Shown piece after piece: positions 684 to 45,263 of a stretch of DNA of 64,000 nt. The DNA comes from an uncultured Clostridia bacterium (lineage in GTDB: Bacteria; Bacillota; Clostridia; UBA1212; SIG427), in contig CAMFNB010000001.1 of NCBI GenBank assembly GCA_945965275.1, positions 25,221 to 89,220 of the forward strand. Direction: 5' to 3'. Numbering within the stretch: position 1 is the stretch's first letter; every line of letters begins with the position of its first letter. The notes beneath the pieces were generated by a model. The model was not told the DNA's origin. It ran no database searches and was given only the letters and a program-made list of their open reading frames with translations. Both the position numbers and the translations under genes were made by a program.

Positions 684-2006
684 TTATAAAAACATTACAT
701 AATAAATAGGCAGATATACGATTTTGCCGTCTGTTTTGACTGTGCGTCCATTCGATATAACAACAGCCTTCTCTATGTGATAGTCTTCATTTTTTACAAG
801 GTTGCTGAGGGCACTGTGAACCGTATAGTCTTTGCCGGACTTAACCTCAATCGGAACCGCGGACAGACTTTCATAATCATCAATCAAATAGTCAACCTCA
901 CCCTTATTACGATTGTCATAATAGAAAAGCTTATGTCCGTGTGCTGCCAATTCACTTGCCACAACACTTTCATAAACCGATCCGAGATTGATGCTTCTTT
1001 CGTCGTTAATAACCGCACGAATATTATTTCCGTAAAGAATTCCCGTCAGAATTCCGACATCATTAAGATAGAGCTTAAGTAAATTCTTTCCGGCAGACTC
1101 AATTAACGGAAACTTCGGATTTGATATCGCCTGAACATTCAGAGCAATTCCTGCACTGATTAAATATTCAAACTCGTCCCGGTAATCCGTAAATGTCTTT
1201 CCCTTTTTATTCTCTATGCTCTGTGCAATCACTCGTTTTTTCTTATTTTCCATATTTGACGGAATCAAATCATACACACGTCGAATCTTCAGTTTTCGTT
1301 CTGCATCATATTTAGATGCGTCCGCAGCATAATACTCATGAATTTCGTTTTGTATTTCACGCACTCTTTGAATGTTTTTTGTTTCAAAATAAGCATTGAC
1401 TGCATCCGGAAGGCCTCCGACAAGCAGATACTTGCGAAACAAATCCGTCATTTTATTATGTACGGATTCCTCAAGCGCCTCCATGCGCTCAAACTTTTTT
1501 CGCATGGAAGAAATTACAATTTCACTCATGCCGCTTGCGTACAAAAATTCCTCAAAATCAAGCGGATACATTCTGATTTTACGAATGCTTCCCATTGGAA
1601 TGGATGTGGTCTCTGACAATGTAACACCAAGAAGGGACCCGCTTGCAATATATGTGTATTTATTGTCCTGCGAAAGAAATTTCAGAAGCGTAAGAAGATG
1701 CGGATATATCTGAATTTCATCAATGAAAATCAGTGTGTTTTCCCTTTCTTTCATTTTGTCGCCATGAAGCATGCTGACCTGTAGGTAGAAATCTTCAACA
1801 GTGCGTATATCAGCAAAAAGCTTTGAATCGAGTGAATCCTCTACCATATTCAATTCAATAAAATTTGAAAACAGCTTTTTCCCCACGTAGCGAATGATAT
1901 ATGTCTTACCAACCTGACGTGCACCGTCAACAAGAAGAATTTTTTGAGAATCCGATTTTAAGTGATCCTCAATTTGAGCTTCGATTTTCCTGTAAAGCAT
2001 TTTCAA
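684..2006 (-). CDS. AAA+ ATPase of the AAA_14/DUF4143 type (generic ATP-binding protein)
   Basis: Walker A-like LLVDGARQVGKTY near N-terminus, 440 aa, typical stand-alone architecture of this family. Confidence 0.8.
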   Translation of the reverse strand: MKMLYRKIEAQIEDHLKSDSQKILLVDGARQVGKTYIIRYVGKKLFSNFIELNMVEDSLDSKLFADIRTVEDFYLQVSMLHGDKMKERENTLIFIDEIQIYPHLLTLLKFLSQDNKYTYIASGSLLGVTLSETTSIPMGSIRKIRMYPLDFEEFLYASGMSEIVISSMRKKFERMEALEESVHNKMTDLFRKYLLVGGLPDAVNAYFETKNIQRVREIQNEIHEYYAADASKYDAERKLKIRRVYDLIPSNMENKKKRVIAQSIENKKGKTFTDYRDEFEYLISAGIALNVQAISNPKFPLIESAGKNLLKLYLNDVGILTGILYGNNIRAVINDERSINLGSVYESVVASELAAHGHKLFYYDNRNKGEVDYLIDDYESLSAVPIEVKSGKDYTVHSALSNLVKNEDYHIEKAVVISNGRTVKTDGKIVYLPIYYVMFL

Positions 2007-2088
2007 GCCTCCGTTTGACTTTTCAAGTATATTTTACAGCGATTTTTCTGATTTTTCAATACTTTTCAGAAGCAAAAATACTAACTTT

Positions 2089-3423
2089 TCAATATTCTCT
2101 CAGCGGTGCCCTTCCGCTTTTACCGACATTAAACGCTCTTTTTCTCGGGAAGCTGCGGCAGGCAATATTTTCAAATCCTTTGGTAACACTCAAAGCCTCT
2201 TCGTTTCCGTATACAATAAACCAGGGATCGGCGTTGCGACAGTACAGATTTTTAATTGTGAAATCCGTCGCAGTTCCTTCGTGAGTAATAATCAAAACGA
2301 GGGCCCGATCTTTGTTTCTCATATATCTTAAAATCGCGTCGCCGTGGGTTTCGTCTGAATTCTTCTCAATATTATTTATATCAACAATATTGATGTCTGT
2401 GCCGGACACAAAAGCCCTTCTCAAACGATTTACAACAGTTCTTCGAAAATCATCCTTTCCGTCCGTGCAGGCCGGCGGAGCATCAATAATAACCAGCAAA
2501 GAAACAGGGTCGCAGTCATTTTCGCGACTGACTCTTCTCATCACACCGCTGCCGTTATCCTGTCGGCGGATTGTTCTCGAACCGTCTGTCAAATTACTCT
2601 TTATATGATTCCTGATTCTGTTTATCGCAACATTTATGTCACTGCTGTTCGGGCGATACAGCCATTCGCATTCGTCGGTGCTTTTTACCTTGTACCATGT
2701 GCAACTATCGTAGCTGCTCCACTGGTGATTGTCTTCGCTCATCTGAAAATATTCCGGCTCCCTCATATGACCGAAGTATTCCGCAAACTCTTCCCTAAAG
2801 CCTTCAAGTCTCATATCCCTCGGAAAATACTCCAGCCTGCCGCTGTCGCATATAAAGTATCGGGTGTGAAGTGCATTAAGCAAAAGCCTGATATGTTCTC
2901 CCGAAACAAAGCTTCCCCCGAATCCGCCGCCGTATCTTATTCTCGTTACATAGTCCACGTGAATGCTGTTCGGAATAAGGAACTGCGTTGCAAAAGCAGT
3001 ATTCTCCGTTATGATGTAGAAGAAATCGGTCTCCCACTCACCGAATACATTGCTCTGAATTTTAACGCGACTGTAAAATACGTTTCCGAACATATCCTTT
3101 GACGGTAAAAGAATCAACCTCTCATCATAAGGAAGCTTCAGTTCTCCCGCAAGCTCCAGGTTCTCTGCAACAATGGAAGTCCTTTTGTCCTGATGAAGCA
3201 CCGCATTGATGCTTCCGTTTTTCAGAAATCCTTTTACCGCCCAGTCATCACAGTCGGTAAAAACAAAGCAGTCCGGCAGCTGTTTCTCTTCCCATCCCTG
3301 AGTTTTCAAATATTGCGGAGTTAAATAGAGCATCCCGTGAAGATCTGTTCCCGCTGACGGATACCAGCAAATGCTTTTATATGATTTAAGTTGTTCCTGA
3401 AGCTCGTATGAAATATCGTCCAT
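2089..3423 (-). CDS. uncharacterized 444-aa protein (no recognizable family); C-terminal alpha/beta region
   Basis: Long intact ORF downstream of WYL regulator and acidic protein, same strand; no motif recognised by eye. Confidence 0.5.
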   Translation of the reverse strand: MDDISYELQEQLKSYKSICWYPSAGTDLHGMLYLTPQYLKTQGWEEKQLPDCFVFTDCDDWAVKGFLKNGSINAVLHQDKRTSIVAENLELAGELKLPYDERLILLPSKDMFGNVFYSRVKIQSNVFGEWETDFFYIITENTAFATQFLIPNSIHVDYVTRIRYGGGFGGSFVSGEHIRLLLNALHTRYFICDSGRLEYFPRDMRLEGFREEFAEYFGHMREPEYFQMSEDNHQWSSYDSCTWYKVKSTDECEWLYRPNSSDINVAINRIRNHIKSNLTDGSRTIRRQDNGSGVMRRVSRENDCDPVSLLVIIDAPPACTDGKDDFRRTVVNRLRRAFVSGTDINIVDINNIEKNSDETHGDAILRYMRNKDRALVLIITHEGTATDFTIKNLYCRNADPWFIVYGNEEALSVTKGFENIACRSFPRKRAFNVGKSGRAPLREY

Positions 3424-3513
3424 GTGTTTTCTCCTTTAGTTGATATGCATAACATAGCAAAACCCCTGCACCATTTTAGGTACAGGGGCTTTCGAATCAA
3501 TGTGCATCAGTCT

Positions 3514-4017
3514 TTATTTCTCTTCTGCTTCGCATAAGATAAAAGTATCACGATGAATAGGATAATCATCATTGTCAAAGTCTTCGAATTTGAAATACAG
3601 AGGATATTTCTTTTCAGGATTTAAGAAGTTAAACTTCATCTTTTTGTAATATCCGTCTAATATAATTCTGTCTTTATCAGCTTCCGCTTCCGCATATTCG
3701 TCGACATCATTGTCGTAAAATGAGAAAGAGTCAGCATCTTCCAATTCTGAGTCAGGAACAAACAACGCGTCGTTGATGGTCTTTAAAAAGTCATATGCGG
3801 TTATATCGCCCTCTTCATATATTTCGTCCTCGGCTTCGTAGCCTTCGTAAAAGCCTTCCTTATGCGGGAAATATTCCGTTTCTTTTGCATACTTTGTTAT
3901 CTGGTTTCTGAATTCGGAATAAGCTTTCTCTTCAGAATCAAATATAACTGCAGAACGTGTGTCTTCGTTATGCATATTTTCTGGGTTTTCTAATGATTTT
4001 ACCAATACGTATTTCAT
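3514..4017 (-). CDS. highly acidic 167-aa hypothetical protein (D/E/Y/F-rich)
   Basis: ORF 22 nt downstream of WYL regulator gene, same strand; extreme acidic composition (many DE runs). Confidence 0.5.
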   Translation of the reverse strand: MKYVLVKSLENPENMHNEDTRSAVIFDSEEKAYSEFRNQITKYAKETEYFPHKEGFYEGYEAEDEIYEEGDITAYDFLKTINDALFVPDSELEDADSFSFYDNDVDEYAEAEADKDRIILDGYYKKMKFNFLNPEKKYPLYFKFEDFDNDDYPIHRDTFILCEAEEK

Positions 4018-4039
4018 ATTCTTGTCCTTTTAAAATAAA

Positions 4040-5188
4040 CTAATTTTCCTGATCATACGGAACGGCTCTGCCTTCCTTCATATCCTCTTCCGCCTGACGA
4101 ATCATATCCGGCAAGTCCTCATTAAACTGCAGCACATAAGAAAGATAATTTCGGAATTTCTCATTCATCTCCGTCGGTTTGTATATGCATATATACGGAT
4201 AATGCTGAAGTACAAATCTCGCAACCGCATCCTCTGTTGATTTGAATGTTATCTCCAGCGGGTGTGTTGCCATAAGTTGTCTCATAACACCGAGATTAAG
4301 TCCCCCTGTGTAAAACAGCCTGTCTTCGGTGGGAAGCTTCGGTAACTTCTTAATCTTTATGTCCTCTCCGAATTCCTGAATAACGTCATTCAGTTCCTCT
4401 TCCCCGCATACAATGGTGAACTCCTTCGGATTACCGTAAAAATATCCCACCATCATAATTCTGTTTGAAAGACTTGCCCTCGGGTCCTCCATGTCTTTCG
4501 AAATAAGATTTCTCTTTTTCTCGGCATCTGCCTCCTTCTCGATTTTTATATTTCGTATCATGCTTGCTCTGAAACCCTGTGTCTCAAAGTACGTTTTTTC
4601 TTCATCCAGAGCCCGGCCGCCGATCAGGATATAGTCATGGTCTGTCAAAACAAGCTGTATCGGAGTAAGTGTATAATCGGCGCCGTGAACCAGCTTCTTA
4701 TTTACGTCATATTTCATATATTCAAAGCTGATTTGCTTTTTCTCCTCAATCGCTTCGTTGATGATTTCAATGTTATTGAATATGTCTTTGCAGTCTGTCT
4801 TTCTCCAGTCTGCAGGTGTGTGCACATTTTTTGTGCTGGTAAAAAACTTCTTTGTCGAAAGTCCGGCAATCTTCTTCACCAGTTCGTCCGTGTATTTTTT
4901 AGAAATTGATTTATTGGAAATTACGCTGTCCGCAAGCACTCTCAGTTCGCCGTCATCGAAGGTACGCTCTGCAAGCCAACTGCCCTTACTGTCGTTTCTT
5001 ATGTCATATCCGGCTTCTTTGAGCAATGAAAGATTTGCGGAAATTGCTTTTCTTTCAATTTCAATTCCGTACCTGTCAAAAAGAATCTCGGAAAGTTCAC
5101 TCTGCTTTATGTGTCTGTCTGCATCTGATTCTTCTTCCAGAATTCTCAAAATTCTCAGAAGTGCCAGTTTCTTAGGTTCTGCGGGCAT
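4040..5188 (-). CDS. wHTH-WYL domain transcriptional regulator (BrxR/CapW-like architecture)
   Basis: N-terminal HTH (KKLALLRILRILEE...ERKAISANLSLLKEAGYDI) and central WYL-like segment (KQISFEYMKY...YTLTPIQLVLTDHDYILIG). Confidence 0.7.
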   Translation of the reverse strand: MPAEPKKLALLRILRILEEESDADRHIKQSELSEILFDRYGIEIERKAISANLSLLKEAGYDIRNDSKGSWLAERTFDDGELRVLADSVISNKSISKKYTDELVKKIAGLSTKKFFTSTKNVHTPADWRKTDCKDIFNNIEIINEAIEEKKQISFEYMKYDVNKKLVHGADYTLTPIQLVLTDHDYILIGGRALDEEKTYFETQGFRASMIRNIKIEKEADAEKKRNLISKDMEDPRASLSNRIMMVGYFYGNPKEFTIVCGEEELNDVIQEFGEDIKIKKLPKLPTEDRLFYTGGLNLGVMRQLMATHPLEITFKSTEDAVARFVLQHYPYICIYKPTEMNEKFRNYLSYVLQFNEDLPDMIRQAEEDMKEGRAVPYDQEN

Positions 5189-5279
5189 ACGATCAACTCC
5201 TTTTCTTTATTGAACAATAAAGTCCTTATATTGTCAACAAAATAATCAGGATACGCATAGCACGTCCTGCCTGTTTTTA

Positions 5280-6035
5280 TCAGTCCTCTATACCTGCCTG
5301 CAGACCGAAATGCGGAAGACTGTTTATGTCTCTGATAAAAACCACATGACCTGCCTGCGGAATAAAATATGTGTTGAACTCAGGATCATTGATTCCGATA
5401 AAGCAAATCATTTTACCGTCCTTTTCAACTGACTTTTCGTAAAATCCGATTTTAACGGTTATATCTTCATCCTTCACATCTTTCGGGAAATTATAGTATT
5501 TCTCAAACTCTATTTTTTCAATCTCACCGGCAACCACATGGTCCCCTCTTTTAGTCTTCAGACTTTCAAAGTCTTCTTCCATAACAATCTCATTTAAGAA
5601 AGCCGTTACTTTGCATTCACCGACAATGTCCCCGGCCATTCCTTTGTAATTCACAATCGGCGCCTTGAAGAATATTTGACAAACCTCTTCTCCAGCCGGG
5701 CAGCAGCTCTCTTTTACCGCATCTCTGTATTCGCCGCAATGGCGGCATTTCTGCAACATGAATCCGCTCTCACTGATTTCTCTGTTTTTGAATTTCCATT
5801 TGCAGTCCCTTGCAGTCATCCATTCATGTCCGTATATTTCACATTCTCTTTTGATTCGCGCCTTCTTTTGTTCATAAGTTTCATTTACGGTTTCCGGCAC
5901 CGGTTTTTTCTGCGGTCTTGTTACGGCATTCACAACAGCATTTGTCAATGCATTTTCCACGAGACGTGATCCGTCAATTCTTCCGCTCATTGCCTGATTT
6001 TTTAATTCATCCAAAACACTTCCCATGTTTGTCAC
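5280..6035 (-). CDS. uncharacterized Cys-rich protein (possible zinc ribbon CxxxxHEW...CRHCGE...CC)
   Basis: ORF abutting upstream membrane-protein gene (stop/start 6037/6035); multiple Cys/His clusters. Confidence 0.5.
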   Translation of the reverse strand: MTNMGSVLDELKNQAMSGRIDGSRLVENALTNAVVNAVTRPQKKPVPETVNETYEQKKARIKRECEIYGHEWMTARDCKWKFKNREISESGFMLQKCRHCGEYRDAVKESCCPAGEEVCQIFFKAPIVNYKGMAGDIVGECKVTAFLNEIVMEEDFESLKTKRGDHVVAGEIEKIEFEKYYNFPKDVKDEDITVKIGFYEKSVEKDGKMICFIGINDPEFNTYFIPQAGHVVFIRDINSLPHFGLQAGIED

Positions 6036-6036
6036 C

Positions 6037-6921
6037 TCACATAATTTCGTTATTCATAAAACGCTGTTCTGCTTCAAAAAGGTTAAGCGCTTCTTTGAGC
6101 GAATCAGCTCTTCCGTTTTTAAGATACTCTTTAAGTTTCATCACCGTTTCGGTACGTTTGTATTTCTCTGCTATGAAATCCTGCTTCTCCAGTTCTTCCC
6201 CGAGTGCACTTACTGCATCAAGACTGTCGGAAATCATCTTGTCAACAAATGCTATGTTTTCTTTGTACTTTTCGTTGTGCATTGCCTCAATCTCGGCACA
6301 TCTCTTTTCAAATTTTGCATTTGCTTCCTCAAGCTGAGTCGGAAGAGCCCCTGCAATCTTTTTCATTTCTTCTGTGATTGCATTTCTTTTTGTGTTAAGA
6401 GCAGCAATATCCATTTGATATTTTTTTATGTGCTTCGGCAATTCAACTTCGTTGAATTTTTTGGTGTTGTCGAATTGCTTTTTGTCTTCCGTATATCTTC
6501 CGAGCTTCGGATGTGTAACTGCACATATTACAATTACACCTATTGCAAGCACAACTCCCATAAAGCCCAAAAAGACAGCGCTTTGCGTGGCTGCCGCAAT
6601 GAATATAAAAAGAAAAGCCTGTGCTGCCATAATTCCCGCAGCGACATTCCAGCTCTTTATCGACGGGGGCAGCTTCGGTTCCGGGAAATAGAATCTCTGC
6701 GGAAGCGGCGGATTCTTTATGCTGTCAAGCTCGTCCTCAAGCTTTTGGATGCTGTTCTCATATTCCTGTAAAACAATGTCTCTCTCATCATTGTTCGGTG
6801 CATTAAACTTGAGCTGAACGCTTCTGTCTAACGACATATTCAAATTCTGATATGCTTCATCACTTTTTTTACAGATTTCATAAAGACCGTCAAGTTTTTG
6901 TAGCAATTCGTCTTTTTCCAT
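6037..6921 (-). CDS. membrane protein with two central TM helices flanked by coiled-coil regions
   Basis: Hydrophobic stretch AAGIMAAQAFLFIFIAAATQSAVFLGFMGVVLAIGVIVICAV; heptad-rich flanks; 15 nt downstream of WYL paralog. Confidence 0.5.
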   Translation of the reverse strand: MEKDELLQKLDGLYEICKKSDEAYQNLNMSLDRSVQLKFNAPNNDERDIVLQEYENSIQKLEDELDSIKNPPLPQRFYFPEPKLPPSIKSWNVAAGIMAAQAFLFIFIAAATQSAVFLGFMGVVLAIGVIVICAVTHPKLGRYTEDKKQFDNTKKFNEVELPKHIKKYQMDIAALNTKRNAITEEMKKIAGALPTQLEEANAKFEKRCAEIEAMHNEKYKENIAFVDKMISDSLDAVSALGEELEKQDFIAEKYKRTETVMKLKEYLKNGRADSLKEALNLFEAEQRFMNNEIM

Positions 6922-6936
6922 ATTTGTTCTCCTGTT

Positions 6937-8067
6937 TTATTTTTCTTTTTCTTCCGCTTCTTCCACAAGTTCGGGCAAATATGCGTGAAGCTCATAAAGA
7001 AGTCTGATGTCTTCCATTAAATTGTTTTTCAGTTCTTCGGGTTTCATAATGCAGACCAAAGGATACCTTCTGAGCACAAAAGATTTTGCTGCGTATCTTG
7101 TTGCCTTAAAGCTGATTTTAATTGCTGACTCTGCAAGCAGTTCCCTTGAAAGATCCACATTCAGGTCATGCAGTTCAAAAAGCTCTCCCTTCTTATTCAG
7201 GTTTTGAAGCTTTGTAATCTTTATGTCCGTCCCGAAAGCCTCTATGACATCGCCGATTTCCCATGACGGGCAAACGATAGTGATATTTTCAAGTTTATTG
7301 AAAAAGTATGATTCTATCGACGGATGCTCCATTACAAGTTGTCTCGCATCCAAGCCGTCTTTCAGCACATCAACCTGCGACTTGTCAATTGCATTGCGGT
7401 TTTCTTCGGTTGAAATGTCCTGTATGTAACTGAGCTTGAAAATACGGGCCTCATACTCCTTCTTTTTCGTAAGAGAACTCATTGATTCCCTGATTGCAAG
7501 AAGGTAGTAATTCTGCGGAGTCATAATCATCTGCACCGGCGACACAATGTATTCATGCTCCGGCTGAAGCTTTTTATCTACGGTGTATTTCATGTATTTA
7601 AATGAAATCTGCTTTTTCCGTTCTATTGCTTCGCTGATGACTTCTATGTTGAGAAACAGTTCGGGGCTCTCATTCTTTTGCCAGTCAAGTACTGAATGGA
7701 TATGCCGGGTACTCGAATAGAAATTCTTGTTCGCAAGCTTTGCGATTTTTTCCACAAGATCAGCCGTATGCTTTTTTGATATGTACTTACTTGAAAGCAC
7801 ACTGTCTATCAGGAGCCTGAGCTCGGATTTTTCAAAATCACGTGTGACAATGTAGCATCCGGTTCTCGTGGTTTCAATCTCATATCCTGCTTCCTTCAGC
7901 AGAGACAGGTTTGCGGCAATTGCCTTTCTTTCGATTTCGATGCCGTAGTTTTCCTTCAGCTTTTCGGCAATGACCGCCTGCGTAAGCGGACGGTCAATGT
8001 CGCTGTATTCTTTCAGTATCTGCAGTATTCTCAGTAATGCTAATTTTTTGGGTTCTGCTGCTCCCAT
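6937..8067 (-). CDS. wHTH-WYL domain transcriptional regulator, paralog of 4040-5188
   Basis: N-terminus MGAAEPKKLALLRILQILKE...IERKAIAANLSLLKEAGYEI nearly identical in pattern to the other copy; WYL-like KQISFKYMKYTVDKK...YYLLAIRE. Confidence 0.7.
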   Translation of the reverse strand: MGAAEPKKLALLRILQILKEYSDIDRPLTQAVIAEKLKENYGIEIERKAIAANLSLLKEAGYEIETTRTGCYIVTRDFEKSELRLLIDSVLSSKYISKKHTADLVEKIAKLANKNFYSSTRHIHSVLDWQKNESPELFLNIEVISEAIERKKQISFKYMKYTVDKKLQPEHEYIVSPVQMIMTPQNYYLLAIRESMSSLTKKKEYEARIFKLSYIQDISTEENRNAIDKSQVDVLKDGLDARQLVMEHPSIESYFFNKLENITIVCPSWEIGDVIEAFGTDIKITKLQNLNKKGELFELHDLNVDLSRELLAESAIKISFKATRYAAKSFVLRRYPLVCIMKPEELKNNLMEDIRLLYELHAYLPELVEEAEEKEK

Positions 8068-8086
8068 ATTTATCTTGCCCTACTGA

Positions 8087-8290
8087 TTATTTTTTCAGAA
8101 CCTGCCACAGTTCCCACTTGTTGCAGCAATCATAATGACGCATTGACCAGTTTGTCAGCGTGCAGGTTCCTTGTGCCAAGTGTTCAACATCAACTGCTCT
8201 GTTTCCCTGTGATAGTTTTCTCATACCCAGCCAATAGCCACATGTTGAGCACTTTTTATCGCATGAAAAAGTTAATGCCATGTCATCCAA
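8087..8290 (-). CDS. small Cys-rich protein (6 Cys; CDKKCSTCGYW...CTLTNW...CCNKW)
   Basis: 67-aa ORF 19 nt upstream of the WYL paralog, same strand; 9 nt downstream of repeat peptide. Confidence 0.4.
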   Translation of the reverse strand: MDDMALTFSCDKKCSTCGYWLGMRKLSQGNRAVDVEHLAQGTCTLTNWSMRHYDCCNKWELWQVLKK

Positions 8291-8299
8291 CCTCCTTTC

Positions 8300-8545
8300 T
8301 CAGTTGTTTGAATTTAAGTCAATCAACGATGCCGCAGCATCGCCCTTTGCGATAATGCGTCCGTAGAAATCTCTGGTTACATCCATACCGGCCTTGTAAT
8401 CTCCGAGAATCCTTCCGTAAAAATCTTTTACAAGTTTGTCACCGTTCGGCTTCACGATAATTGTTCCCTTGATTCTTCCGTAAAAATCCTTGATTTTAAT
8501 TTCCTGGTCCATTGTAAAATTCTCCTTTATTAATATTTCAGCCAA
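8300..8545 (-). CDS. 81-aa peptide with three tandem KDFYGRI(x)G repeats
   Basis: Internal repeats DFYGRIKG / DFYGRILG / DFYGRIIAKG visible in translation. Confidence 0.4.
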   Translation of the reverse strand: MAEILIKENFTMDQEIKIKDFYGRIKGTIIVKPNGDKLVKDFYGRILGDYKAGMDVTRDFYGRIIAKGDAAASLIDLNSNN

Positions 8546-8777
8546 TTATTGTTATAAATATACTGAATCCGATGTACTGATTTCCGTGCACTGAAAGTTT
8601 TACATCTTCATAAACTGTATATTTCTCAGGCTTACAATGTCAGTTTACGCATCGCCATGTATCATTTTTCGTGCATGGTTAATTTTTTTCGGTAAAAAAC
8701 GACAAAGCCCGTTGCACATCTCTGTACAACGGACTCTGCCGCAATATAATGCAGTATTTCAAAGGCACTGATTGTCG

Positions 8778-9080
8778 TTACTCAAACATCTTTAAGAATT
8801 CTTCTGCCGAAAGCTTTATAAATCCGCTGTGCGATGCCTCTGCTCCCGTCTTTCTGTACGGGTTTGCCGTCATATAATCTTTGAGATCATAGAACGGCAA
8901 TCGCAGCGTGGAATATGTCCCGTAATGCTTGATTTTGTATCCCGATTTATACAGAATCTTTTCAAGCTCTTTCGTATATTTCACTGCGTAGTTTCTGTCG
9001 TATTCTCTTCCGAGTCGCGGCAATACTTTTAACTTTCTTTTTTTGAACGGCTTTGAAAATATTTCTGATAGTATCCGCAT
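8778..9080 (-). CDS. hypothetical basic 100-aa protein
   Basis: ORF only; isolated in an 800-bp mostly non-coding stretch. Confidence 0.3.
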   Translation of the reverse strand: MRILSEIFSKPFKKRKLKVLPRLGREYDRNYAVKYTKELEKILYKSGYKIKHYGTYSTLRLPFYDLKDYMTANPYRKTGAEASHSGFIKLSAEEFLKMFE

Positions 9081-9345
9081 ATAAAAAGACCTCCGTCAGA
9101 TTTTCTAACGAAAGTCTATCATATGTTGTGTGTCAGATTCGGGGCATCATTAATCTTTGACGTTTTTATTGCGCTTTTATCCGACATAATTCTTCCTCTG
9201 TTTTCCCTGGTTTTTCCTGTCACCATAAAAAACCCCGAAAAAACATCATAAATTTATGGTGAAAATCCTGCATTTTTGGTGGTAAAACCCTCTTTTTGCA
9301 CTCTTTTCCCTTGCACACCACGCTTCAGAAATATACAATAATCGC

Positions 9346-10596
9346 ATGCAGAAAAAAATCCAGGCCATAAAAGAATATCTGTCAAAAGATTACCGACTGA
9401 TGTATCGTCCGTCAGGCGGAATACTCAATCATAAATTTCTCACCCCCGGAGCCTGCTACAGCGACTGCCTCTGGGACTGGGACTCATATTTTGCTGATGT
9501 GGCATTAAGACAGATTCTCCTCGAAAACGGCGAAGACACAAAAGAAGCCTCAGAATACGAAAAAGGAGGCATCCTAAACTTCCTTGAACACACCAACGAC
9601 GACGGCTTTATGCCCATAATGATTACCCGCGACATGACAGACGAAGGAATGATTCCGGTAAAATACCCGAACGAGAACATGCACAAGCCCGTAATTGCAC
9701 AGCATGCCGCATTTCTTGTAAAACAGGAAAACGGAAACGCCCACTGGCTTGCTCCGTATTTCGACAAACTTCGCAAATTCATAAACTGTTATTTAACCCG
9801 TCACACCCACATGGCCACAGGCCTTGTGTTCTGGCAAACCGACAATATGATCGGTGTCGATAATGATCCGTGCACATTTTACAGGCCGGACGGTTCATCC
9901 GCATCCATATTTTTAAACTGCCTTATGGTAAAAGAGCTTTCCGCCATGGCATATCTCGCAACCTGTTTAGGACGCGAAGAGGATGCCGCATATTATATAA
10001 AAGAACACGAGCGCCTGGCGACTGCAGTAAGAGAGCACTGCTATGATGAGCGGGACGGATTCTTTTACAGTGTTGATATTAATTTAAGACCGATTGATTC
10101 TTCCGAGTGGCTGCACTCCGGTGCCCCTCGCAACTGGGACTGCCTTATTCAGAGAATTGATTCATGGAGCGGCTTTGCCGCGCTCTGGGCCGGTGTTGCA
10201 ACAAAGGAGCAGGCAGAAAGAATTGCGACAAGGTTCGACGAAGAACAAACTTTCAACTGTGCCGGAGGCATTCGCACGCTTTCAAAACTCGAAAAGATTT
10301 ATCAGGTTGTTGCCTCAGGAAATCCTTCCTGCTGGCTGGGACCTGTCTGGATAATTTCAAACTATCTCACATTCAGGGGCTTACTCTGTTATGGCTTCAC
10401 CGAGCGGGCCCGGGAGCTTTGCGAAAAAACGATTAATCTTCTCGGTGAAGACGTAATCAAGAACGGCTGCATGCACGAGTACTATGATCCGGATACCTGC
10501 GAGCCCGTTATCAATGCCGGTTTCCTCAACTGGAACATGCTTGTTCTCAATATGGCGGCGTGGTATGAGGGCCGCGACTTCATTGAGGAATTCTGA
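9346..10596 (+). CDS. six-hairpin glycoside hydrolase (GH63/GH37 trehalase-like)
   Basis: Motif PGACYSDCLWDWDSYF resembles the trehalase/GH63 signature (PGGRFxExYxWDxY). Confidence 0.5.
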   Translation: MQKKIQAIKEYLSKDYRLMYRPSGGILNHKFLTPGACYSDCLWDWDSYFADVALRQILLENGEDTKEASEYEKGGILNFLEHTNDDGFMPIMITRDMTDEGMIPVKYPNENMHKPVIAQHAAFLVKQENGNAHWLAPYFDKLRKFINCYLTRHTHMATGLVFWQTDNMIGVDNDPCTFYRPDGSSASIFLNCLMVKELSAMAYLATCLGREEDAAYYIKEHERLATAVREHCYDERDGFFYSVDINLRPIDSSEWLHSGAPRNWDCLIQRIDSWSGFAALWAGVATKEQAERIATRFDEEQTFNCAGGIRTLSKLEKIYQVVASGNPSCWLGPVWIISNYLTFRGLLCYGFTERARELCEKTINLLGEDVIKNGCMHEYYDPDTCEPVINAGFLNWNMLVLNMAAWYEGRDFIEEF

Positions 10597-12317: not shown

Positions 12318-12509
12318 TGGAACAAAAACAAGCTGCACCTTTTAAGAGTGCAGCTTGTGAAATTTATGCCATATAAATATCTTTTATTTTTTTTGAGTTT
12401 GTTCTAAAAGTTTCTCATTTAATCTGCCAGAGAACATACAGCATATAAGTCAAGTCCTTTTTTGTGTGTAAATTCATCTTTCAGTTATTAACACTTCTTT
12501 CAACGAGCC

Positions 12510-13223
12510 TTACTCTTCCGTATACTCATGTGGGCGTTCTTTATAATCTTTAACTTTATACTCACCGATGGTATCATATTTGCTTGCTTTGGTTTCGGTT
12601 GGGGTGTCAGTTTCATTATCTTCACCGAGGATTGCATCGAAGAAGATGCGTTCAAGATATTCATATTTAGAATAGATACCTTGGGAAGCCCAAACGAGAG
12701 CGTTACGAACATAGGCGGAATTTGTTTTGAAAAGTTCGTGTTTAACTTCAAAGCCTAATGATTTTGCAAGAAGTACGGCGAACACAATAACCGTTCTTGT
12801 ATTGCCCTCGCGGAAGGGATGCGTCTGCCAAATACTTGCAATAATACGAACAAGTTTGAAAACTATATCCTTATCATTATCGCCGTTTTTTTTGAGTTTA
12901 GCGATTTCTTTCATTGTTTCATTCAGTTGCTTCTTTATTTCTTTAGGATAAGCATAACGAACAGTATCACCGCCAAGAACATCTTCGTATTTAACCATTT
13001 GTATAGTGCGGAATTCTCCTGCCCAATCAAATATTTGGCCAAATATATTTCTATGAATATCGCACAATGTCTCTGTATTGAATTTTTCATATTTTTGCTC
13101 GTAAATCGCAGACATAGCAAGATTAGTTATATCAGCCTCGGCTTTACGAAGCAATTCTGCATCTTTAATTTCGGCTCTGTTTTTTAACACCGAAACATCA
13201 TCATATAAATAAGGATCTCTCAT
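12510..13223 (-). CDS. Fic family protein (short Fic, E. coli Fic-like N-terminus RDPYLY)
   Basis: Fic motif variant HPFREGNTR (canonical HPFx[DE]GNGRxxR); N-terminus MRDPYLYDDVSVLKNR like E. coli Fic. Confidence 0.8.
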   Translation of the reverse strand: MRDPYLYDDVSVLKNRAEIKDAELLRKAEADITNLAMSAIYEQKYEKFNTETLCDIHRNIFGQIFDWAGEFRTIQMVKYEDVLGGDTVRYAYPKEIKKQLNETMKEIAKLKKNGDNDKDIVFKLVRIIASIWQTHPFREGNTRTVIVFAVLLAKSLGFEVKHELFKTNSAYVRNALVWASQGIYSKYEYLERIFFDAILGEDNETDTPTETKASKYDTIGEYKVKDYKERPHEYTEE

Positions 13224-13750
13224 TATCTTATCTCCACAGGAAAGCCATATCTTTTTAAGGTGTTTTCAAACACAGATAAAAATGTCTGTGTTCCATTCTT
13301 CCATGCATCAATTTCCGCACCAGTTTCTTTGCTTACAGGAACTCCTTCTATTGCATTCATTGCATAAGCAAATGACGAACAAGTTTCTTTCTCTTTCAAA
13401 GATAAGGAGTCCATTCCTGAGCTTAGTTTATACATTGTCAGATGACAGTATAAGTTTTTATCAATCAACTTTGCAGCTTGCTCAAGTTGCAATAATCTAT
13501 TTTTTATTTCAGATAATTCTTCAATTATTATTTTTCGCTTTTCGATTTTGTTTAAAATTTCTCCGAGTTCATCGCACCTTAAATACGAACTAACTATCTT
13601 GGCTCCATCGCGTCTTTGGAGATAATACTGTGTATTACCTTTAATTACTTTTTTAGAAATATAGCCAACAGGCAAAGAGAGTATTTCTTCCTCTAATTGT
13701 TGCTTTTTATTGATAAGCATATGATATTCTTTCGCTACTGACATCATCAT
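13223..13750 (-). CDS. Fic-partner protein (Fic_N / antitoxin-like, AIEG helix), translationally coupled to Fic
   Basis: Stop TAA overlaps Fic ATG (TAATG); GGAGG RBS before internal Met (MMMSV...); motif AMNAIEGV resembles the SxAIEGN inhibitory-helix motif. Confidence 0.5.
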   Translation of the reverse strand: MMMSVAKEYHMLINKKQQLEEEILSLPVGYISKKVIKGNTQYYLQRRDGAKIVSSYLRCDELGEILNKIEKRKIIIEELSEIKNRLLQLEQAAKLIDKNLYCHLTMYKLSSGMDSLSLKEKETCSSFAYAMNAIEGVPVSKETGAEIDAWKNGTQTFLSVFENTLKRYGFPVEIR

Positions 13751-14054
13751 ACCTATACCTCCATTTATCATTATTAATATTATATTACCAATTAACCTAC
13801 AAGTCAATATGTTTTAACTGTTCTGTAGGTTATCCAATCTCAGTTAAAATATTCGTCAAAAACAAAAAAACAAATAAAAATATCCGGATTTAGTAATGCA
13901 CTAAACCCGGCCATTTTTAATTAAGCATATATTAATTCTGTATATAACTTTATTTGCACTTAGTTTGATATTATTCTTTCCGCAAACCCATTCCAATTGA
14001 TTTTCTGCCTTGAGTTGTTCGGTGATGCTTTGCTTTTGCTTTTTACCGATAAAA

Positions 14055-15584: not shown

Positions 15585-16478
15585 CTATGACCGTAGTCTC
15601 TTTTGTATTTCACTGACTCGTGCCTCTTCGACAGCAGTCAGCTTGTTCGTATAAGGGCTGTAATCCAAATGGTAATAACTTGTGGTTATTTCATCACCGA
15701 TCTCTTCGTCCGGATAAACCAGCCATCCCTCTAAACACATGTCGGAATTACAGCCGAGTTTTGTGTATTCATCTTTTTCTTCTTTTGTAAGTATCGGTTT
15801 GCCTTTTACGACAAACATGGATTCCTTCATGCCTGCCAGCCAGATAAGATCTCCCGGCTTGTAAGCCGTGGGAAAATCAAACCACATATTCCAAAAGGAT
15901 TCTCTGTAACTTTCAGTATCGCTGTCATATGTGTGGGTGTTTATCAGCCTATTTTCTCTGTCAAATACGAGCTGACCGATTGGCCTTTTATCAGGCTTCA
16001 TCTTATATATCATAAGTTCGTCTTTTTTTCTGTCTTTTTCAAACTCCATTGCTTTTTCAAATGAAGTGAACACACAGCAGCTTGCGGAAGTTGTGTAAAC
16101 ATACTCGGGGTCAAATCGACAAAACTCTTTTATGTCTTCGTTGATGCTTCGCATATATGCCTTCAGAAATTCAAATACCGTTCGCTTTCCTGTCACAGCT
16201 GCAAGCGGAGGCATGACTTCATCAGAAAGAGTATCCATAAGTTCAGCCCAGGCATCAAATCTTTCCTGCAGAGTAAGACCCTGTGCATGCCGAATAAGGT
16301 AAACAGCCTCAAGTGTGCTGAAGTCATAATTCACACAGCTCTCATAGTATGTACGTATATACGGAATGTTGATGTATTTAATTAAACTCTTTTTAAATTC
16401 GGAAATACTTATTGCGTCTTTCATAATAGGTTGCCGGGGACCCCTGATTGGAGGTTGCGGGATCCCCGCCTTTCTCAT
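15585..16478 (-). CDS. hypothetical protein, third gene of AAA+ operon
   Basis: ATG overlaps stop of upstream AAA+ gene (TGATG coupling). Confidence 0.5.
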   Translation of the reverse strand: MRKAGIPQPPIRGPRQPIMKDAISISEFKKSLIKYINIPYIRTYYESCVNYDFSTLEAVYLIRHAQGLTLQERFDAWAELMDTLSDEVMPPLAAVTGKRTVFEFLKAYMRSINEDIKEFCRFDPEYVYTTSASCCVFTSFEKAMEFEKDRKKDELMIYKMKPDKRPIGQLVFDRENRLINTHTYDSDTESYRESFWNMWFDFPTAYKPGDLIWLAGMKESMFVVKGKPILTKEEKDEYTKLGCNSDMCLEGWLVYPDEEIGDEITTSYYHLDYSPYTNKLTAVEEARVSEIQKRLRS

Positions 16479-18496
16479 CAGCAGAAGCCGATGCTCTTTC
16501 TGTTGTTACCGCATCCGATTACCGGTGCTTCAATATCCACCGCACGAATTGTTTTCACATCTTCGTCAGTAACGGAATCGTAATCCATATGAACCAATCT
16601 TGTTGCCTGTGCCAGCTTAGCCTTTTCCAAAATATTACGAACATAACGTCCGTTGCCGAAGTCAGTCTGTGCACGTGCCGCTTCAAAAATTCCTGTGAGT
16701 TTTACACAGGCTTCGTCATCAAGTCTGATTGACTTTTTACCGGCCATAAGCTTTGCAATGTCACAAAGGTCTTTGGCTGTGTAATCCTTGAAAGGAATGT
16801 GGAATGCAATTCTTGAACGAAGGCCCGGATTCTTTTGGAGAAACTGTTCCATCTTGTCAGGGTATCCCGCAAAAATGACAACAACGTCATTTCTGTGATT
16901 TTCCATTTCCTGAACAATGGTGTTGATAGCCTCGTCACCGAATGAACCGCTTCTGTCGTCGACCAGTGAATACGCCTCATCAATGAAAAGAACTCCGCCT
17001 CTGGCTTCCTTGAATTTCTTTTGAATTGTAGGTGCTGTCCATCCGACATATTTGCCTACAAGGTCACCACGGCCCACCTCAACAATGTGACCATACTCGA
17101 GAATCTTGTTCTCTCTCATAATTCTTGCGAAGAGTCTTGCCACGGTTGTCTTTGCAGTTCCCGGATTACCGGTAAAAATCATATGCATTGCGCCTTCTTC
17201 AGTATCAAGTCCTCTGTCAGCAAACATCTTCTTGGCCTTGAAAAAATCAAGTGCCTGGTTGATGACTTTCTTGGCATCCTCGATACCAATCATATTCATA
17301 AGCTCATCATATGCAGAACCCTTTGCCTGTTCTTTTGCAATTGTTTTCTTTGTGCTTTCAACCATCTTGTATTCAGGATAATATTTGTTCTTGATTTTCA
17401 TATCCTGCCAACGGGTGAAAAGACTGACAAGATCGGGACCGTAATAGTCCTTACCCTCTTCCACAGATTCAAATAATTTCTTGTCCGGTTTGATGTTGTT
17501 TTCTTTCGCAAGATATTTAAGATAATCACGTGCCTTCTCTCCGGACGCAGCTTCCTCCGTAATATGCACAAAGCTGATGTTCGAAAGATATTCGTTGAAG
17601 ATTGACTTGAGATTTGTGCAGGCCTTAGGCAGACAGAGAACGGTAAGAACCCTGTTGCGATTCTTATTCATAAAATTTGCAATCATTTCAACTAATTCTC
17701 TTGATGCGTCTGCAGTGTCATCTTCTGAATCTGCATCATAATCAAACCTGAGTACAACAGTACCGCCCGCGTTGCTTTCGTAAACAGCAGCAAGACCCCT
17801 CTGCGGAATGTTATTATCCTCGTTAACATCAATAAACGCATATCTTTTGTTTTCGATTCTGTTGTTCGCGTGGAGTGCTCTTAAGATATTCTTATATGTT
17901 TCTCTGCGACAGTCTCTGTCGTCCGTTTCAATAATGTAGTGTACGGGATGTCCGACAAAATGTCCTTTTCTTTTTACAGAATAGATTCTTTCAATTTCGG
18001 GAAGCAAAGACTGGTTTGTAAAAAGTCTCTGGGCCGCAAGCTGCAAAGATTCCTTCGAATAATCGTCAATAATGTTCTCAGAATAAGGGAAGCGAGGTCC
18101 GAATCTTCTGTTGATAAGAAAGTCAAGATTAAAGAAATTAATGACCTCATCTTCATCGTCTAAGATTTCCATTCTGTTTGCTCTTCTGAGATTTGCTTCA
18201 GTTGCTTCGAGGAGGATCTCATCCTCTGACTCTGCAAGCAATTCAAGTCCGAGTGCTTTTACATACGAATGAAAAAGCTTCTCCGGTGAAATCTTTGAAC
18301 GAATAATTGCAGTAAACTGTGCTTCGTTATGCTTTGCACCTGTGAGACAGATAAAATCATCAGGCTTGAGTCTGTTATTAAACTCTGCAGTAATATCCGC
18401 AATATCGTGACAGTAAATTCTGAAAGCTTCTCTGTCGTTGTATCTTTTATCCCACTCTTCATTTTTTATAACAGCATTAAATTCAAATAATTTCAT
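16478..18496 (-). CDS. SpoVK/CbxX-CfxQ-type AAA+ ATPase with ~400-aa N-terminal extension of unknown function
   Basis: C-terminal half aligns by eye with B. subtilis SpoVK (FTGNPGTAKTTVARL...GGVLFIDEAYSL...GYPDKMEQFL...GLRSRI...ANGRYVRNI). Confidence 0.8.
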   Translation of the reverse strand: MKLFEFNAVIKNEEWDKRYNDREAFRIYCHDIADITAEFNNRLKPDDFICLTGAKHNEAQFTAIIRSKISPEKLFHSYVKALGLELLAESEDEILLEATEANLRRANRMEILDDEDEVINFFNLDFLINRRFGPRFPYSENIIDDYSKESLQLAAQRLFTNQSLLPEIERIYSVKRKGHFVGHPVHYIIETDDRDCRRETYKNILRALHANNRIENKRYAFIDVNEDNNIPQRGLAAVYESNAGGTVVLRFDYDADSEDDTADASRELVEMIANFMNKNRNRVLTVLCLPKACTNLKSIFNEYLSNISFVHITEEAASGEKARDYLKYLAKENNIKPDKKLFESVEEGKDYYGPDLVSLFTRWQDMKIKNKYYPEYKMVESTKKTIAKEQAKGSAYDELMNMIGIEDAKKVINQALDFFKAKKMFADRGLDTEEGAMHMIFTGNPGTAKTTVARLFARIMRENKILEYGHIVEVGRGDLVGKYVGWTAPTIQKKFKEARGGVLFIDEAYSLVDDRSGSFGDEAINTIVQEMENHRNDVVVIFAGYPDKMEQFLQKNPGLRSRIAFHIPFKDYTAKDLCDIAKLMAGKKSIRLDDEACVKLTGIFEAARAQTDFGNGRYVRNILEKAKLAQATRLVHMDYDSVTDEDVKTIRAVDIEAPVIGCGNNRKSIGFC

Positions 18497-18526: not shown

Positions 18527-19051
18527 TCACGCACACTCACCGCTGTAGTATGCTCTGTCATCAGCAATATCTTCTTTAATCAGTTCAATTTTGTTTTCAA
18601 CCCAATCAATAACAGTTCTCTGCAGGGTTGAACCCTCAAACCTTACATAGTTCTTGTTTGCATATTCAGCTTTTACTCTGCCTGCCCTATCAACATAGTC
18701 AAGCGGTATTATGTTATATGCAGCCTTGCCAATGTCACCACAGTAAAGCAATGTTGCCACAGTGCCTTTAATGTCAATAACATCCCAGTCTTCTTCTATA
18801 AAGTTAAGTGGTTGTCCCACTTCAATCATCTCAGCCGTCGAGCCGAGGTCAACCCTGATAACAGGGCGTACGTATTTTCTTGTTGTAACATCTTGTCTGC
18901 TGTCTCTGCAGTCACCGTACTTTCTTACGGGCCCCAAAGAAGGTCTGCACCAAAAATCAATTGCACCGTTTTCCAGAATCTCTTCCGGAAGCTTGTTCTT
19001 TTCTTCAGCAGTTAAAACAGTTATTTCTAAAATAGAATCAAAATTAAACAT
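18527..19051 (-). CDS. hypothetical protein, first gene of AAA+ operon
   Basis: ORF 30 nt upstream of AAA+ gene, same strand. Confidence 0.5.
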   Translation of the reverse strand: MFNFDSILEITVLTAEEKNKLPEEILENGAIDFWCRPSLGPVRKYGDCRDSRQDVTTRKYVRPVIRVDLGSTAEMIEVGQPLNFIEEDWDVIDIKGTVATLLYCGDIGKAAYNIIPLDYVDRAGRVKAEYANKNYVRFEGSTLQRTVIDWVENKIELIKEDIADDRAYYSGECA

Positions 19052-40553: not shown

Positions 40554-42787
<2,234 letters not shown>

Positions 42788-42828
42788 CTTTGCCTAAAAA
42801 TACACAATATATTGTAACATGTTTGGGA

Positions 42829-43914
42829 TTAAAATACAATATTTTCTTCCTTTATAAAAAAGGACTTCTCTCCGGCAGGAGATGTATTTTGAATATTTTC
42901 CGGATTGGTGCATGTTATAAACACCTGAGAATCCGTGATTTTACCGAGAAGAAGCTTTTGGCGTGTGTCATCAAGCTCAGAAAGAACGTCGTCAAGCAAC
43001 AGAACAGGGGTTTTTCCGGTAACATCGCGAAGAACAGTCAGCTCTGAGAGCTTCATGGCAATAATCAAGGTGCGCTGCTGTCCCTGTGAACCGTATTTTT
43101 TTATATCACCGGTACCCTCTAAAATAACATCAATGTCATCACGCTGAGGACCCACTAAAGACATATGTCTCTCAACCTCATGTGTTTTTTCTTTTTCAAG
43201 CTTTTCATAAAAAGCAGCTTTGTCAGAATCACATGAAGATATGTATTTTATTTTTACTTTCTCTTTTCCGCCTGAAATATATGAATGGAAGTCTGAAACA
43301 AGGGGAGTGAGTTTTTCGAAATATTCCTTCCTTGCTTCGACGATTTTTGCGCCATATTCGGACAATTGCTCATTCCAAATATCCAAAAGGGTATAGTCTG
43401 CGTTTTTCGGATTAATTTCCTTTAAAAAGGCATTTTTTTGATTAATTATTTTATTGTATTGCTGAAGATTGAAATAATATACCGGTTTCAGCTGAGAAAT
43501 TGCCATATCCATGAACTTTCTGCGTTCGCCGGGGCCCTGAGAGAGAAGGGACATATTTTGAGGAGAGAATATTACTCCCGGTAAAATACCCATTAGATCT
43601 CCCATTTTAGTAAGATAAATACCACTGATTGAAATGGTCTTTTTCTTGTTTTTATTGTATGTTATCTTAATTTCATTTTCTGCTTCAGTATCTGTAAAAA
43701 CCGTTACTTCATAAGAATCGCAGCCGTCTTTAATCATTTCAATGTCTTTGTTTGTTCTGAAGGATTTTCCTATAGACGAAAGAAACAACGCCTCAAGGAC
43801 ATTTGTCTTTCCCTGGCCGTTGTCTCCGTAAAATATATTTACACCGTTTGAAAATTCAAATTCTCTTTCCGTGTAATTTCTGAAATTTTTAAGTTTTATC
43901 TTTTTAACGTACAT
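42829..43914 (-). CDS. recF: DNA replication/repair protein RecF
   Basis: Walker A GDNGQGKTN, typical N-terminus. Confidence 0.95.
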   Translation of the reverse strand: MYVKKIKLKNFRNYTEREFEFSNGVNIFYGDNGQGKTNVLEALFLSSIGKSFRTNKDIEMIKDGCDSYEVTVFTDTEAENEIKITYNKNKKKTISISGIYLTKMGDLMGILPGVIFSPQNMSLLSQGPGERRKFMDMAISQLKPVYYFNLQQYNKIINQKNAFLKEINPKNADYTLLDIWNEQLSEYGAKIVEARKEYFEKLTPLVSDFHSYISGGKEKVKIKYISSCDSDKAAFYEKLEKEKTHEVERHMSLVGPQRDDIDVILEGTGDIKKYGSQGQQRTLIIAMKLSELTVLRDVTGKTPVLLLDDVLSELDDTRQKLLLGKITDSQVFITCTNPENIQNTSPAGEKSFFIKEENIVF

Positions 43915-45011: not shown

Positions 45012-45164
45012 ATTCTCGGTCCTCCCGATATTATATTATTTATATTTTTATCTGTTGTAGTAGTTGTAGTAGTATTGTGAATTCTGTTCAAAAGTCGGAT
45101 AAATCCCAATAAATTCACATTTTACCTGTGTATAATTTGTTTAAATCCTTGTTTATAAATTATA

Positions 45165-45255
45165 TCACTTATCCACAAAATGCACAGGTAAAAGTTATGC
45201 ACATTTTTATCAACAGGTTATGCACAAGTTATCCACAGGTTTCTGTGCATAACTT
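45165..45255. promoter_or_regulatory. DnaA-box cluster (oriC element, incC-like) between dnaA and dnaN
   Basis: TTATCCACA at 45169-45177 and 45229-45237; TTATGCACA at 45195-45203 and 45218-45226; TGTGCATAA at 45244-45252. Confidence 0.7.
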
Positions 45256-45263
45256 TTTTTCAG

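Follow-up and report, generated by a model that had tools for sequence, protein, structure and literature searches.

WYL-domain regulators repress defence systems and sense single-stranded DNA (ssDNA) (PMC9122601, PMC11662680, PMC9122588), and those of the BrxR family adjoin variable accessory cargo (PMC9122601). Here we describe a locus with two WYL regulators in a 64,000-nucleotide stretch of DNA from an uncultured Clostridia bacterium (GTDB lineage UBA1212; SIG427; assembly GCA_945965275.1, contig CAMFNB010000001.1, positions 25,221 to 89,220 of the forward strand), hereafter the window, to which all coordinates refer unless another contig is named. Positions 3424..8777 (5,354 bp) form a self-contained accessory cassette, present in some strains and absent from others, which carries two WYL paralogs, WYL_A and WYL_B, together with orphan cargo. 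By analogy with the described regulators, we tentatively favor the reading that the cassette is WYL-controlled and nucleic-acid-inducible, with a payload acting at the membrane and a defence- or exclusion-type role.

The cassette consists of two transcription units, both on the minus strand. In the order of transcription, the first encodes p70 (gene 8300..8512 within the open reading frame, ORF, 8300-8545; 70 amino acids with three (K/R)DFYGRI β-hairpin repeats), the Cys-rich p67 (gene 8087..8281 within ORF 8087-8290; 64 amino acids), WYL_A (6937..8067), a transcription factor of the winged helix-turn-helix (wHTH)-WYL-WCX type, TM294 (6037..6921), a 294-amino-acid protein with a predicted membrane hairpin flanked by helical arms, and C251 (gene 5280..6026 within ORF 5280-6035), a 248-amino-acid orphan with a C-x4-H ... 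C-x2-C ... CC pattern and a predicted β-rich C-terminal half. The second unit consists of WYL_B (4040..5188), the paralog of WYL_A, and its cargo gene ac167 (3514..4017), the product of which is a very acidic protein of 167 amino acids; ac167 follows WYL_B in every contig where it was found. The genes of the first unit are separated by gaps of 18, 19, 15, and 10 nt, in order, in agreement with the original prediction of five tightly spaced ORFs on one strand. Terminator-like hairpins are located at both edges of the cassette, one at 8699..8742, just past the neighboring gene p100 (20-bp stem followed by a T-run), and the other at 3459..3492 (14-bp stem, 7 GC pairs), both on the minus strand; a simple scan of this strand found none between 8699 and 3492. 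The sizes first given for p70, p67, and C251 (81, 67, and 251 amino acids) were those of the ORFs, which stand, but the starts had to be moved based on the positions of the ribosome-binding sites (RBS) and on gene calls in identical public contigs: the p70 start is most likely the ATG at 8512, with AAAGGAGA located 8 nt upstream, and those of p67 and C251 are the ATGs at 8281 and 6026, respectively. The description of the module as headed by its WYL gene had to be abandoned, p70 and p67 preceding WYL_A in the operon.

Comparison with related loci in public contigs (designated L001 onward) revealed four haplotypes, one of them a deletion derivative. In L084 and L085, as well as in 22 further similar places, both flanks are approximately 99% identical to the window and 3424-8777 is missing, so that 25 bp separate the stop codon of p100 (8778-9080, minus strand), which adjoins the cassette on its upstream side, from the ATG of the DUF7663 gene (2089-3423, minus strand), the next gene downstream. 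In such cassette-free strains, p100 lies directly before DUF7663, with an RBS, as if the two belonged to one operon. The cassette is carried by L090, L002, and L003, in which the p100 allele is only 45% identical; L002 and L003 are 99.8% identical to the window from 8744 downwards. In the deletion derivative, L086 (3382-4329), the lost region starts with the nucleotidyltransferase gene and reaches codon 76 of WYL_B, with the junction inside WYL_B at window position 4961, leaving a 315-amino-acid WYL_B devoid of its helix-turn-helix (HTH) region, followed by intact ac167 and DUF7663, which suggests that ac167 is tolerated without an intact regulator. The more distant L087 (approximately 90% identical) retains the order C251-WYL_B-ac167-DUF7663. 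No direct repeats, target-site duplications or terminal repeats were found at the cassette junctions. The pattern is best explained by gain and loss of the cassette through recombination at a chromosomal hotspot that harbors many conflict-type genes.

Selection on the first unit was measured against one diverged allele, L001, with 92% nucleotide identity. The ratios of nonsynonymous to synonymous divergence (dN/dS) were 0.05 for p70, 0.35 for p67, 0.02 for WYL_A, 0.18 for TM294, and 0.19 for C251, indicating purifying selection on all these genes and, thus, that the ORFs are real genes. The synonymous divergence (dS) itself is uneven along the cassette, varying roughly eightfold (p70, 0.56; p67, 0.11; WYL_A, 0.07; TM294, 0.50; C251, 0.37), with the TM294/C251 cargo being much more diverged between the alleles than the WYL_A regulator, which suggests a mosaic assembled by piecemeal recombination. 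Such variation would also be compatible with the absence of a functional unit, p70, p67, a regulator, and two orphans having come to lie side by side at a recombination hotspot and sharing transcripts by chance, and the p70 and p67 families indeed occur elsewhere in unrelated contexts, with their adjacency repeated in only L009 and L010. Nevertheless, gene order and spacing are preserved in every contig with any of the seven genes, down to approximately 90% nucleotide identity, the short terminator-free gaps (10 to 19 nt) favor an operon, and purifying selection extends over all genes. We consider accidental juxtaposition unlikely.

Sequence comparison assigns WYL_A and WYL_B (376 to 382 amino acids) to the wHTH-WYL-WCX class, in which they are lineage-specific paralogs and additional members of a known regulator class. 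The paralogy proposed in the original prediction was borne out (45% identity, E = 1e-91). The near-identity claimed for the N-terminal HTH was overstated for the domain as a whole, with 45 of the 72 positions identical, but applies to the stretch YGIEIERKAI(A/S)ANLSLLKEAGY (21 of 22). The two proteins are mutual closest relatives and have in common two insertions, of approximately 8 and 24 residues, that are missing in 23 other family members, which supports a lineage-specific duplication. The Pfam WYL profile (PF13280) scores 31.4 bits with WYL_A (cutoff 21.8) and 20.7 bits, just under the cutoff, with WYL_B, and both match PADLOC WYL profiles (E = 5e-13 and 3e-13, respectively), of which PDLC01652 spans residues 140-355. 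In direct phmmer searches, the regulators did not resemble any WYL protein of known structure. Positions 171-321 of a profile derived from a 25-sequence family alignment, however, aligned with residues 196-340 of DriD (8tp8) and also matched the DriD C-terminal constructs 7u02 and 7tzv (E = 3e-7 to 1.5e-6 for DriD) as well as PafC; according to the alignment with the DriD structures, the WCX extension is present C-terminal to the WYL domain. The N-terminal 75 residues are the best-conserved part of the family, with PADLOC PDLC01457 aligning from residue 13, and the putative HTH in this region is matched in Pfam at sub-threshold level (HTH_12, 16.7 bits with a cutoff of 21.4; HTH_11, E = 0.064).

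Relatives of the two regulators, with 32% to 44% identity, were found in 25 loci from Oscillospiraceae, Acutalibacteraceae, Christensenellaceae, and other Clostridia metagenome-assembled genomes (MAGs), the best matches among GTDB representatives being 39% to 44% identical proteins from Oscillospiraceae, Acutalibacteraceae, and other Clostridia MAGs; two WYL homologs are located on viral contigs. The genes downstream of these relatives vary, encoding SpoVK/CbbX-like AAA+ proteins (7 loci), UvrD-like, SNF2-like, leucine-rich repeat, and other proteins, and no homologs of TM294, C251, p70, p67, or ac167 were present at the other WYL-family loci. The idea of a duplicated regulator with different cargo is thus well taken: WYL_A and WYL_B are true paralogs, their relatives precede unrelated cargo, and the setting is a strain-variable hotspot. 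The window itself also encodes a 672-amino-acid AAA+ protein (AAA + AAA_lid_6, SpoVK/CbbX-like; 16478-18496), accompanied by 18527-19051 and 15585-16478 and lacking an adjacent WYL gene; in 7 of the 25 other loci, an ortholog (41% to 49% identity) occurs no farther than approximately 8 kb from a WYL-family gene.

The DriD (E = 3e-7) and PafC matches, the best that the family profile gives among solved structures, point to an alternative, namely, a DriD/PafBC-like regulon for DNA damage or stress, in which the WYL paralogs, possibly as a PafB/PafC-like heterodimer, would be activators responding to the accumulation of ssDNA, and TM294, as a membrane protein induced by damage, would be, for instance, a division inhibitor rather than a defence effector. 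PafBC is composed of a pair of WYL paralogs, and DriD is an activator of damage-response promoters (PMC11804915, PMC13004042); moreover, UvrD-like and SNF2-like helicases often neighbor the WYL family in other genomes. However, a core damage response is not expected to be missing from most near-identical strains, and the cargo is orphan, fast-diverging, and devoid of a repair enzyme. On balance, a stress regulon appears improbable.

The membrane component on which the favored, defence- or exclusion-type reading draws is TM294. The protein contains one continuous hydrophobic stretch of 46 residues (92-137) with a polar TQS mid-way, which is predicted to split it into a two-helix membrane hairpin, placing both soluble arms (residues 1-90 and 138-294, acidic and helical) on the same side. 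The original description of TM294 as a membrane coiled-coil protein can be retained as far as the two-helix hairpin is concerned, whereas the coiled coil derives from a crude heptad count and weak matches to coiled-coil families. A word-indexed search of 5.8 billion proteins yielded two relatives of TM294, both at least 84% identical, and there was nothing beyond chance-level matches in the PDB, phages, plasmids, or viral contigs. PADLOC gave a weak LeoBC match (E = 2.4e-6), in which residues 24-221 align with positions 398-585 of the 601-position profile, and no other; a PycTM match (E = 0.063) fell below the PycTM cutoff, PHROGs gave nothing below E = 0.02, and no homology to described abortive-infection or transmembrane effectors was detected. 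No GTPase or P-loop family matched TM294, which thus lacks a recognizable dynamin-type GTPase.

C251 is still more isolated. An exhaustive phmmer search of 1.84 billion representative proteins recovered its own cluster only, and no match was obtained in the word-indexed search, the PDB, Pfam, NCBIfam, PHROGs, PADLOC, or viral contigs. Its supposed richness in Cys and His is modest, with 9 Cys and 5 His in the 251-amino-acid reading; C65-x4-H70, C97-x2-C100, and C111-C112 are kept in the L001 allele, but C78 and C119 are not. The basis for regarding it as a putative zinc-ribbon protein is the C-x4-H ... C-x2-C pattern, and no zinc-ribbon family of Pfam matched C251 or p67. The cargo of the second unit, ac167, has a net charge of −26, with 45 Asp and Glu among its 167 residues, and no family match in Pfam, NCBIfam, PHROGs, or PADLOC. 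None of the cassette proteins matches a housekeeping family; such matches had been named in advance as evidence against the original prediction.

The two small proteins encoded ahead of WYL_A belong to more widely distributed families. The triple DFYGRI repeat of p70, as originally proposed, is evident in the protein and also as three 20-nt DNA repeats (D4). The p70 family comprises at least 132 clusters, with a consensus of three (K/R)DFYGRI(I/L)G repeats, and mostly occurs in large uncultured phages. It is represented on 43 IMG/VR contigs, often 100-200 kb in length, where p70 lies in a conserved block, peptide deformylase ... SSB - 119-aa protein - p70 - NrdD, NrdD being an anaerobic ribonucleotide reductase; no match was found in GenBank phages. 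This phage clade (approximately 100-200 kb; L004-L008 and L039-L081, from IMG/VR and Logan contigs) includes one contig, IMGVR_UViG_3300045988_157455, with two p70 copies. The AlphaFold2 model of p70, with a predicted local distance difference test score (pLDDT) of 92, shows three β-hairpins and a helix (residues 62-68), with D-F-Y-G falling between the strands and Lys, Arg, Phe, and Tyr at the hairpin tips; a fold search against BFVD returned weak uncharacterized matches only. β-flower proteins have been described as built of hairpin petals, the tips of which carry [DNEQ]xxG, Lys/Arg, and Phe, and of a hydrophobic helix at the C terminus, with half-flower variants also known (Durairaj et al. 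2023, PMC10584680). In the model, p70 likewise has hairpin petals, [DNEQ]xxG tips, and a C-terminal hydrophobic helix, resembling a three-petal "half flower". Among 53 p70 relatives, 13 weakly match Pfam Bflower and 7 match Bflower_2 (best E = 7e-4; 13.6 bits against a cutoff of 38 in the one Bflower_2 match examined), and the window p70 itself matches neither family. An assignment of p70 to the YD/Rhs repeat proteins was rejected, there being neither a Pfam RHS_repeat match nor a large many-repeat shell.

In p67, four of the six Cys are conserved in distant homologs, which are 31% to 39% identical and have the common motif KKCxTCxYWxGxR...GxC...CxK[WY]xxW. These homologs are located in L009/L010 (a Clostridia MAG) and in two unrelated metagenome contigs (L082 and L083), none of them near a WYL gene, and p67 has no family match in Pfam, NCBIfam, or PADLOC. 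In L009 (5995-7566), a p70-like gene, a p67-like four-Cys gene, which is uncalled in the source annotation, a gene for a 201-amino-acid protein, and a second p70-like gene stand in a row; apart from the cassette, p70 and p67 genes adjoin each other in L009/L010 only. A link of the p70-p67 pair to WYL genes was considered and rejected, since 0 of the 27 WYL-family loci have either gene and 0 of the 46 p70 loci have a WYL gene. The original prediction had named scattered homologs as evidence against it, and scattered they are for p70 and p67: their homologs occur apart from WYL genes, those of p70 mostly on phage contigs.

The distribution of p70 is an argument for yet another explanation, that the cassette is a moron-like fragment of a phage or mobile element, in which p70 and possibly other genes would be phage-derived, the WYL proteins would be the repressors of the element, and TM294 would be a superinfection-exclusion or holin-like protein. 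The presence of the p70 family in the 43 IMG/VR contigs within the SSB-119aa-p70-NrdD block, the behavior of the cassette as an indel among strains, and the two WYL homologs on viral contigs are all compatible with this scenario. By contrast, neither the cassette nor its flanks contain an integrase or other mobility genes, or replication, packaging, or structural phage genes, there are no junction repeats, and the GC content of the cassette is like that of the flanks. Furthermore, neither viral contigs nor GenBank phages yielded relatives of TM294, C251, or p67, and p70 itself has no GenBank phage match. The lack of mobility genes and junction repeats, together with the chromosomal location, renders the prophage idea weak, and a phage or element origin of the cassette is doubtful.

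The promoter regions of the two units were searched for regulator-binding sites. The region regarded as a putative promoter and leader for the first unit (8546..8698, minus strand) contains a promoter-like site, CTGACA-18-TACAGT, at 8643-8614, upstream of p70, and a 16-bp imperfect palindrome, TTTCAGTGCACGGAAA; neither is above chance expectation, and no operator was established. The 91-nt intergenic region ahead of WYL_B (5189..5279, minus strand) contains a promoter-like TTGACA and short palindromes, including a perfect 8+8 palindrome, CTTTATTG-TT-CAATAAAG, which is not conserved in the 90%-identical L087.

The reading of the cassette as an inducible defence or exclusion module draws on what has been published about WYL regulators, on the gene neighborhood, and on the membrane traits predicted for TM294 and possibly for p70. 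If they behave like BrxR, CapW, and DriD, WYL_A and WYL_B would bind their own promoter regions, and binding of a nucleic-acid-type signal by the WYL domain, for example, ssDNA arising from phage attack or DNA damage, would change expression. The payload of the first unit would then act at the cytoplasmic membrane, into which TM294 would insert its helical hairpin while holding two helical arms in the cytoplasm. C251, probably translationally coupled to TM294, would be its partner or sensor, and p70, with its β-flower-like fold and Lys/Arg/Phe/Tyr tips, may likewise be membrane-associated. Inducible defence or exclusion of the abortive-infection type would be the most likely role of such a module.

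Several observations weigh against this reading. No cassette protein matches a validated defence family, the PADLOC matches being limited to generic WYL profiles and the one weak LeoBC match, and the cassette contains no validated PADLOC defence system, so that the co-localization with a recognized system seen for BrxR is not reproduced. DriD and PafC, the nearest relatives with solved structures, control DNA-damage responses rather than defence. TM294 and C251 are orphans of one lineage, to which guilt by association is inapplicable, the AlphaFold2 model of C251 is unusable (pLDDT 39), and the relatives of p70 and p67 are never found beside a WYL gene elsewhere. Finally, 12-mers common to both promoter regions occur at chance level only, and neither a search for repeats across 2000-9400 nor one for words and palindromes in the promoter regions revealed a convincing or conserved WYL operator. 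The original prediction had suggested that a membrane-disrupting abortive-infection effector/sensor pair could be formed. A more specific version, which we regard as quite unlikely, is that TM294 and C251 would be a previously unseen effector/sensor pair at the membrane, belonging to a new anti-phage system of the abortive-infection or exclusion type that is inducible and controlled by two cooperating, PafBC-like WYL paralogs; p70 and p67 would then be co-factors, or a component captured from phages that tunes the trigger.

The hotspot that harbors the cassette is chromosomal, approximately 37 kb from dnaA-dnaN-recF-gyrB. These four genes are located at 40554-46613 on the minus strand and the cumulative GC skew turns near 46-47 kb, indicating that the window spans the chromosomal replication origin region. 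Among the neighbors, p100 encodes a basic 100-amino-acid protein (net charge +11) without a family, and the DUF7663 product matches PF24699 (E = 8e-33), a family of which no mention was found in the literature searched. Downstream of DUF7663 and two genes from the cassette lies an AAA_14/DUF4143 ATPase gene (684-2006), the product of which matches the PADLOC defence candidate PDC-S01 (E = 6e-180). Another indel nearby is the 1,674-bp segment at 12344-14017, which contains a Fic/DOC-family gene (12510-13223) and a gene for a 194-amino-acid protein (13223-13807) and is missing from the 99%-identical L084/L085. Conversely, L084 and L085 carry an 819-bp insert (8779-9597 in L084) between a glycoside hydrolase gene and p100, where the window has 43 bp (9156-9198); the insert encodes a SHOCT-like protein of 57 amino acids and an HTH-nucleotidyltransferase (Polbeta/NTP_transf_2, MntA-like layout). 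In related strains, a SLFN_AlbA_2 + HATPase_c_4 gene is found a few kb past AAA_14 (L090, 11491-12810; L087, 3286-4605), adding to the conflict-gene flavor of the region. The AAA_14/DUF4143, Fic, HTH-nucleotidyltransferase, and SLFN_AlbA_2 neighbors are toxin-antitoxin-like or defence-candidate genes.

The cassette is rare and confined to one uncultured gut Clostridia lineage. If the defence or exclusion role proves true, it would represent a compact WYL-controlled cassette with a payload that has no homologs among approximately 15 billion proteins, an example of lineage-private effectors arising in variable hotspots, and a case of dual-paralog WYL control outside Actinobacteria. Regardless of the role, the analysis defines two small-protein families, p70 (three hairpins, encoded beside SSB in large uncultured gut phages) and p67 (four Cys, approximately 65 amino acids), and the natural cassette-plus, cassette-minus, and HTH-deleted haplotypes offer ready comparisons.

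Compared with known systems, the cassette combines familiar and unfamiliar traits. Two-gene abortive-infection modules with a membrane effector include RexAB and the transmembrane effectors of CBASS and Pycsar. Like these, the cassette appears to place a small membrane protein beside a soluble partner and a repressor within an accessory island; unlike these, it contains no cyclase or other signaling gene, and there is no sequence relationship. In dynamin-like proteins, the C-terminal part consists of a helical trunk and a hydrophobic membrane paddle (PMC4159319), a layout with which TM294, matching the C-terminal third of the LeoBC profile, is compatible. However, TM294 is half the length of LeoBC, is not accompanied by a LeoA partner gene, and has no GTPase domain, which makes the match a resemblance in layout rather than membership; it may reflect a common helical and hydrophobic composition only. 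From the β-flower families of the Tubby-like clan CL0395 (PF21784-PF21786), p70 differs in having only three petals, a monomer model without a closed barrel, and Pfam scores far under the gathering thresholds, and in that the p70 family is largely phage-borne. The closest kinship is with the wHTH-WYL-WCX systems of BrxR, CapW, DriD, and PafBC, with which the locus has in common the WYL and WCX match, the HTH-like N-terminal region, and variable accessory cargo. Unlike in those systems, the WYL_A gene is third in its operon rather than first, the two paralogs are 1.7 kb apart with cargo between them, the proteins carry insertions of approximately 8 and 24 residues, and there is neither a long inverted repeat upstream nor an adjacent validated defence system. 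Without demonstrating a new principle, the arrangement differs from the described systems in its mid-operon regulator, its second paralog with cargo of its own, and its orphan membrane payload.

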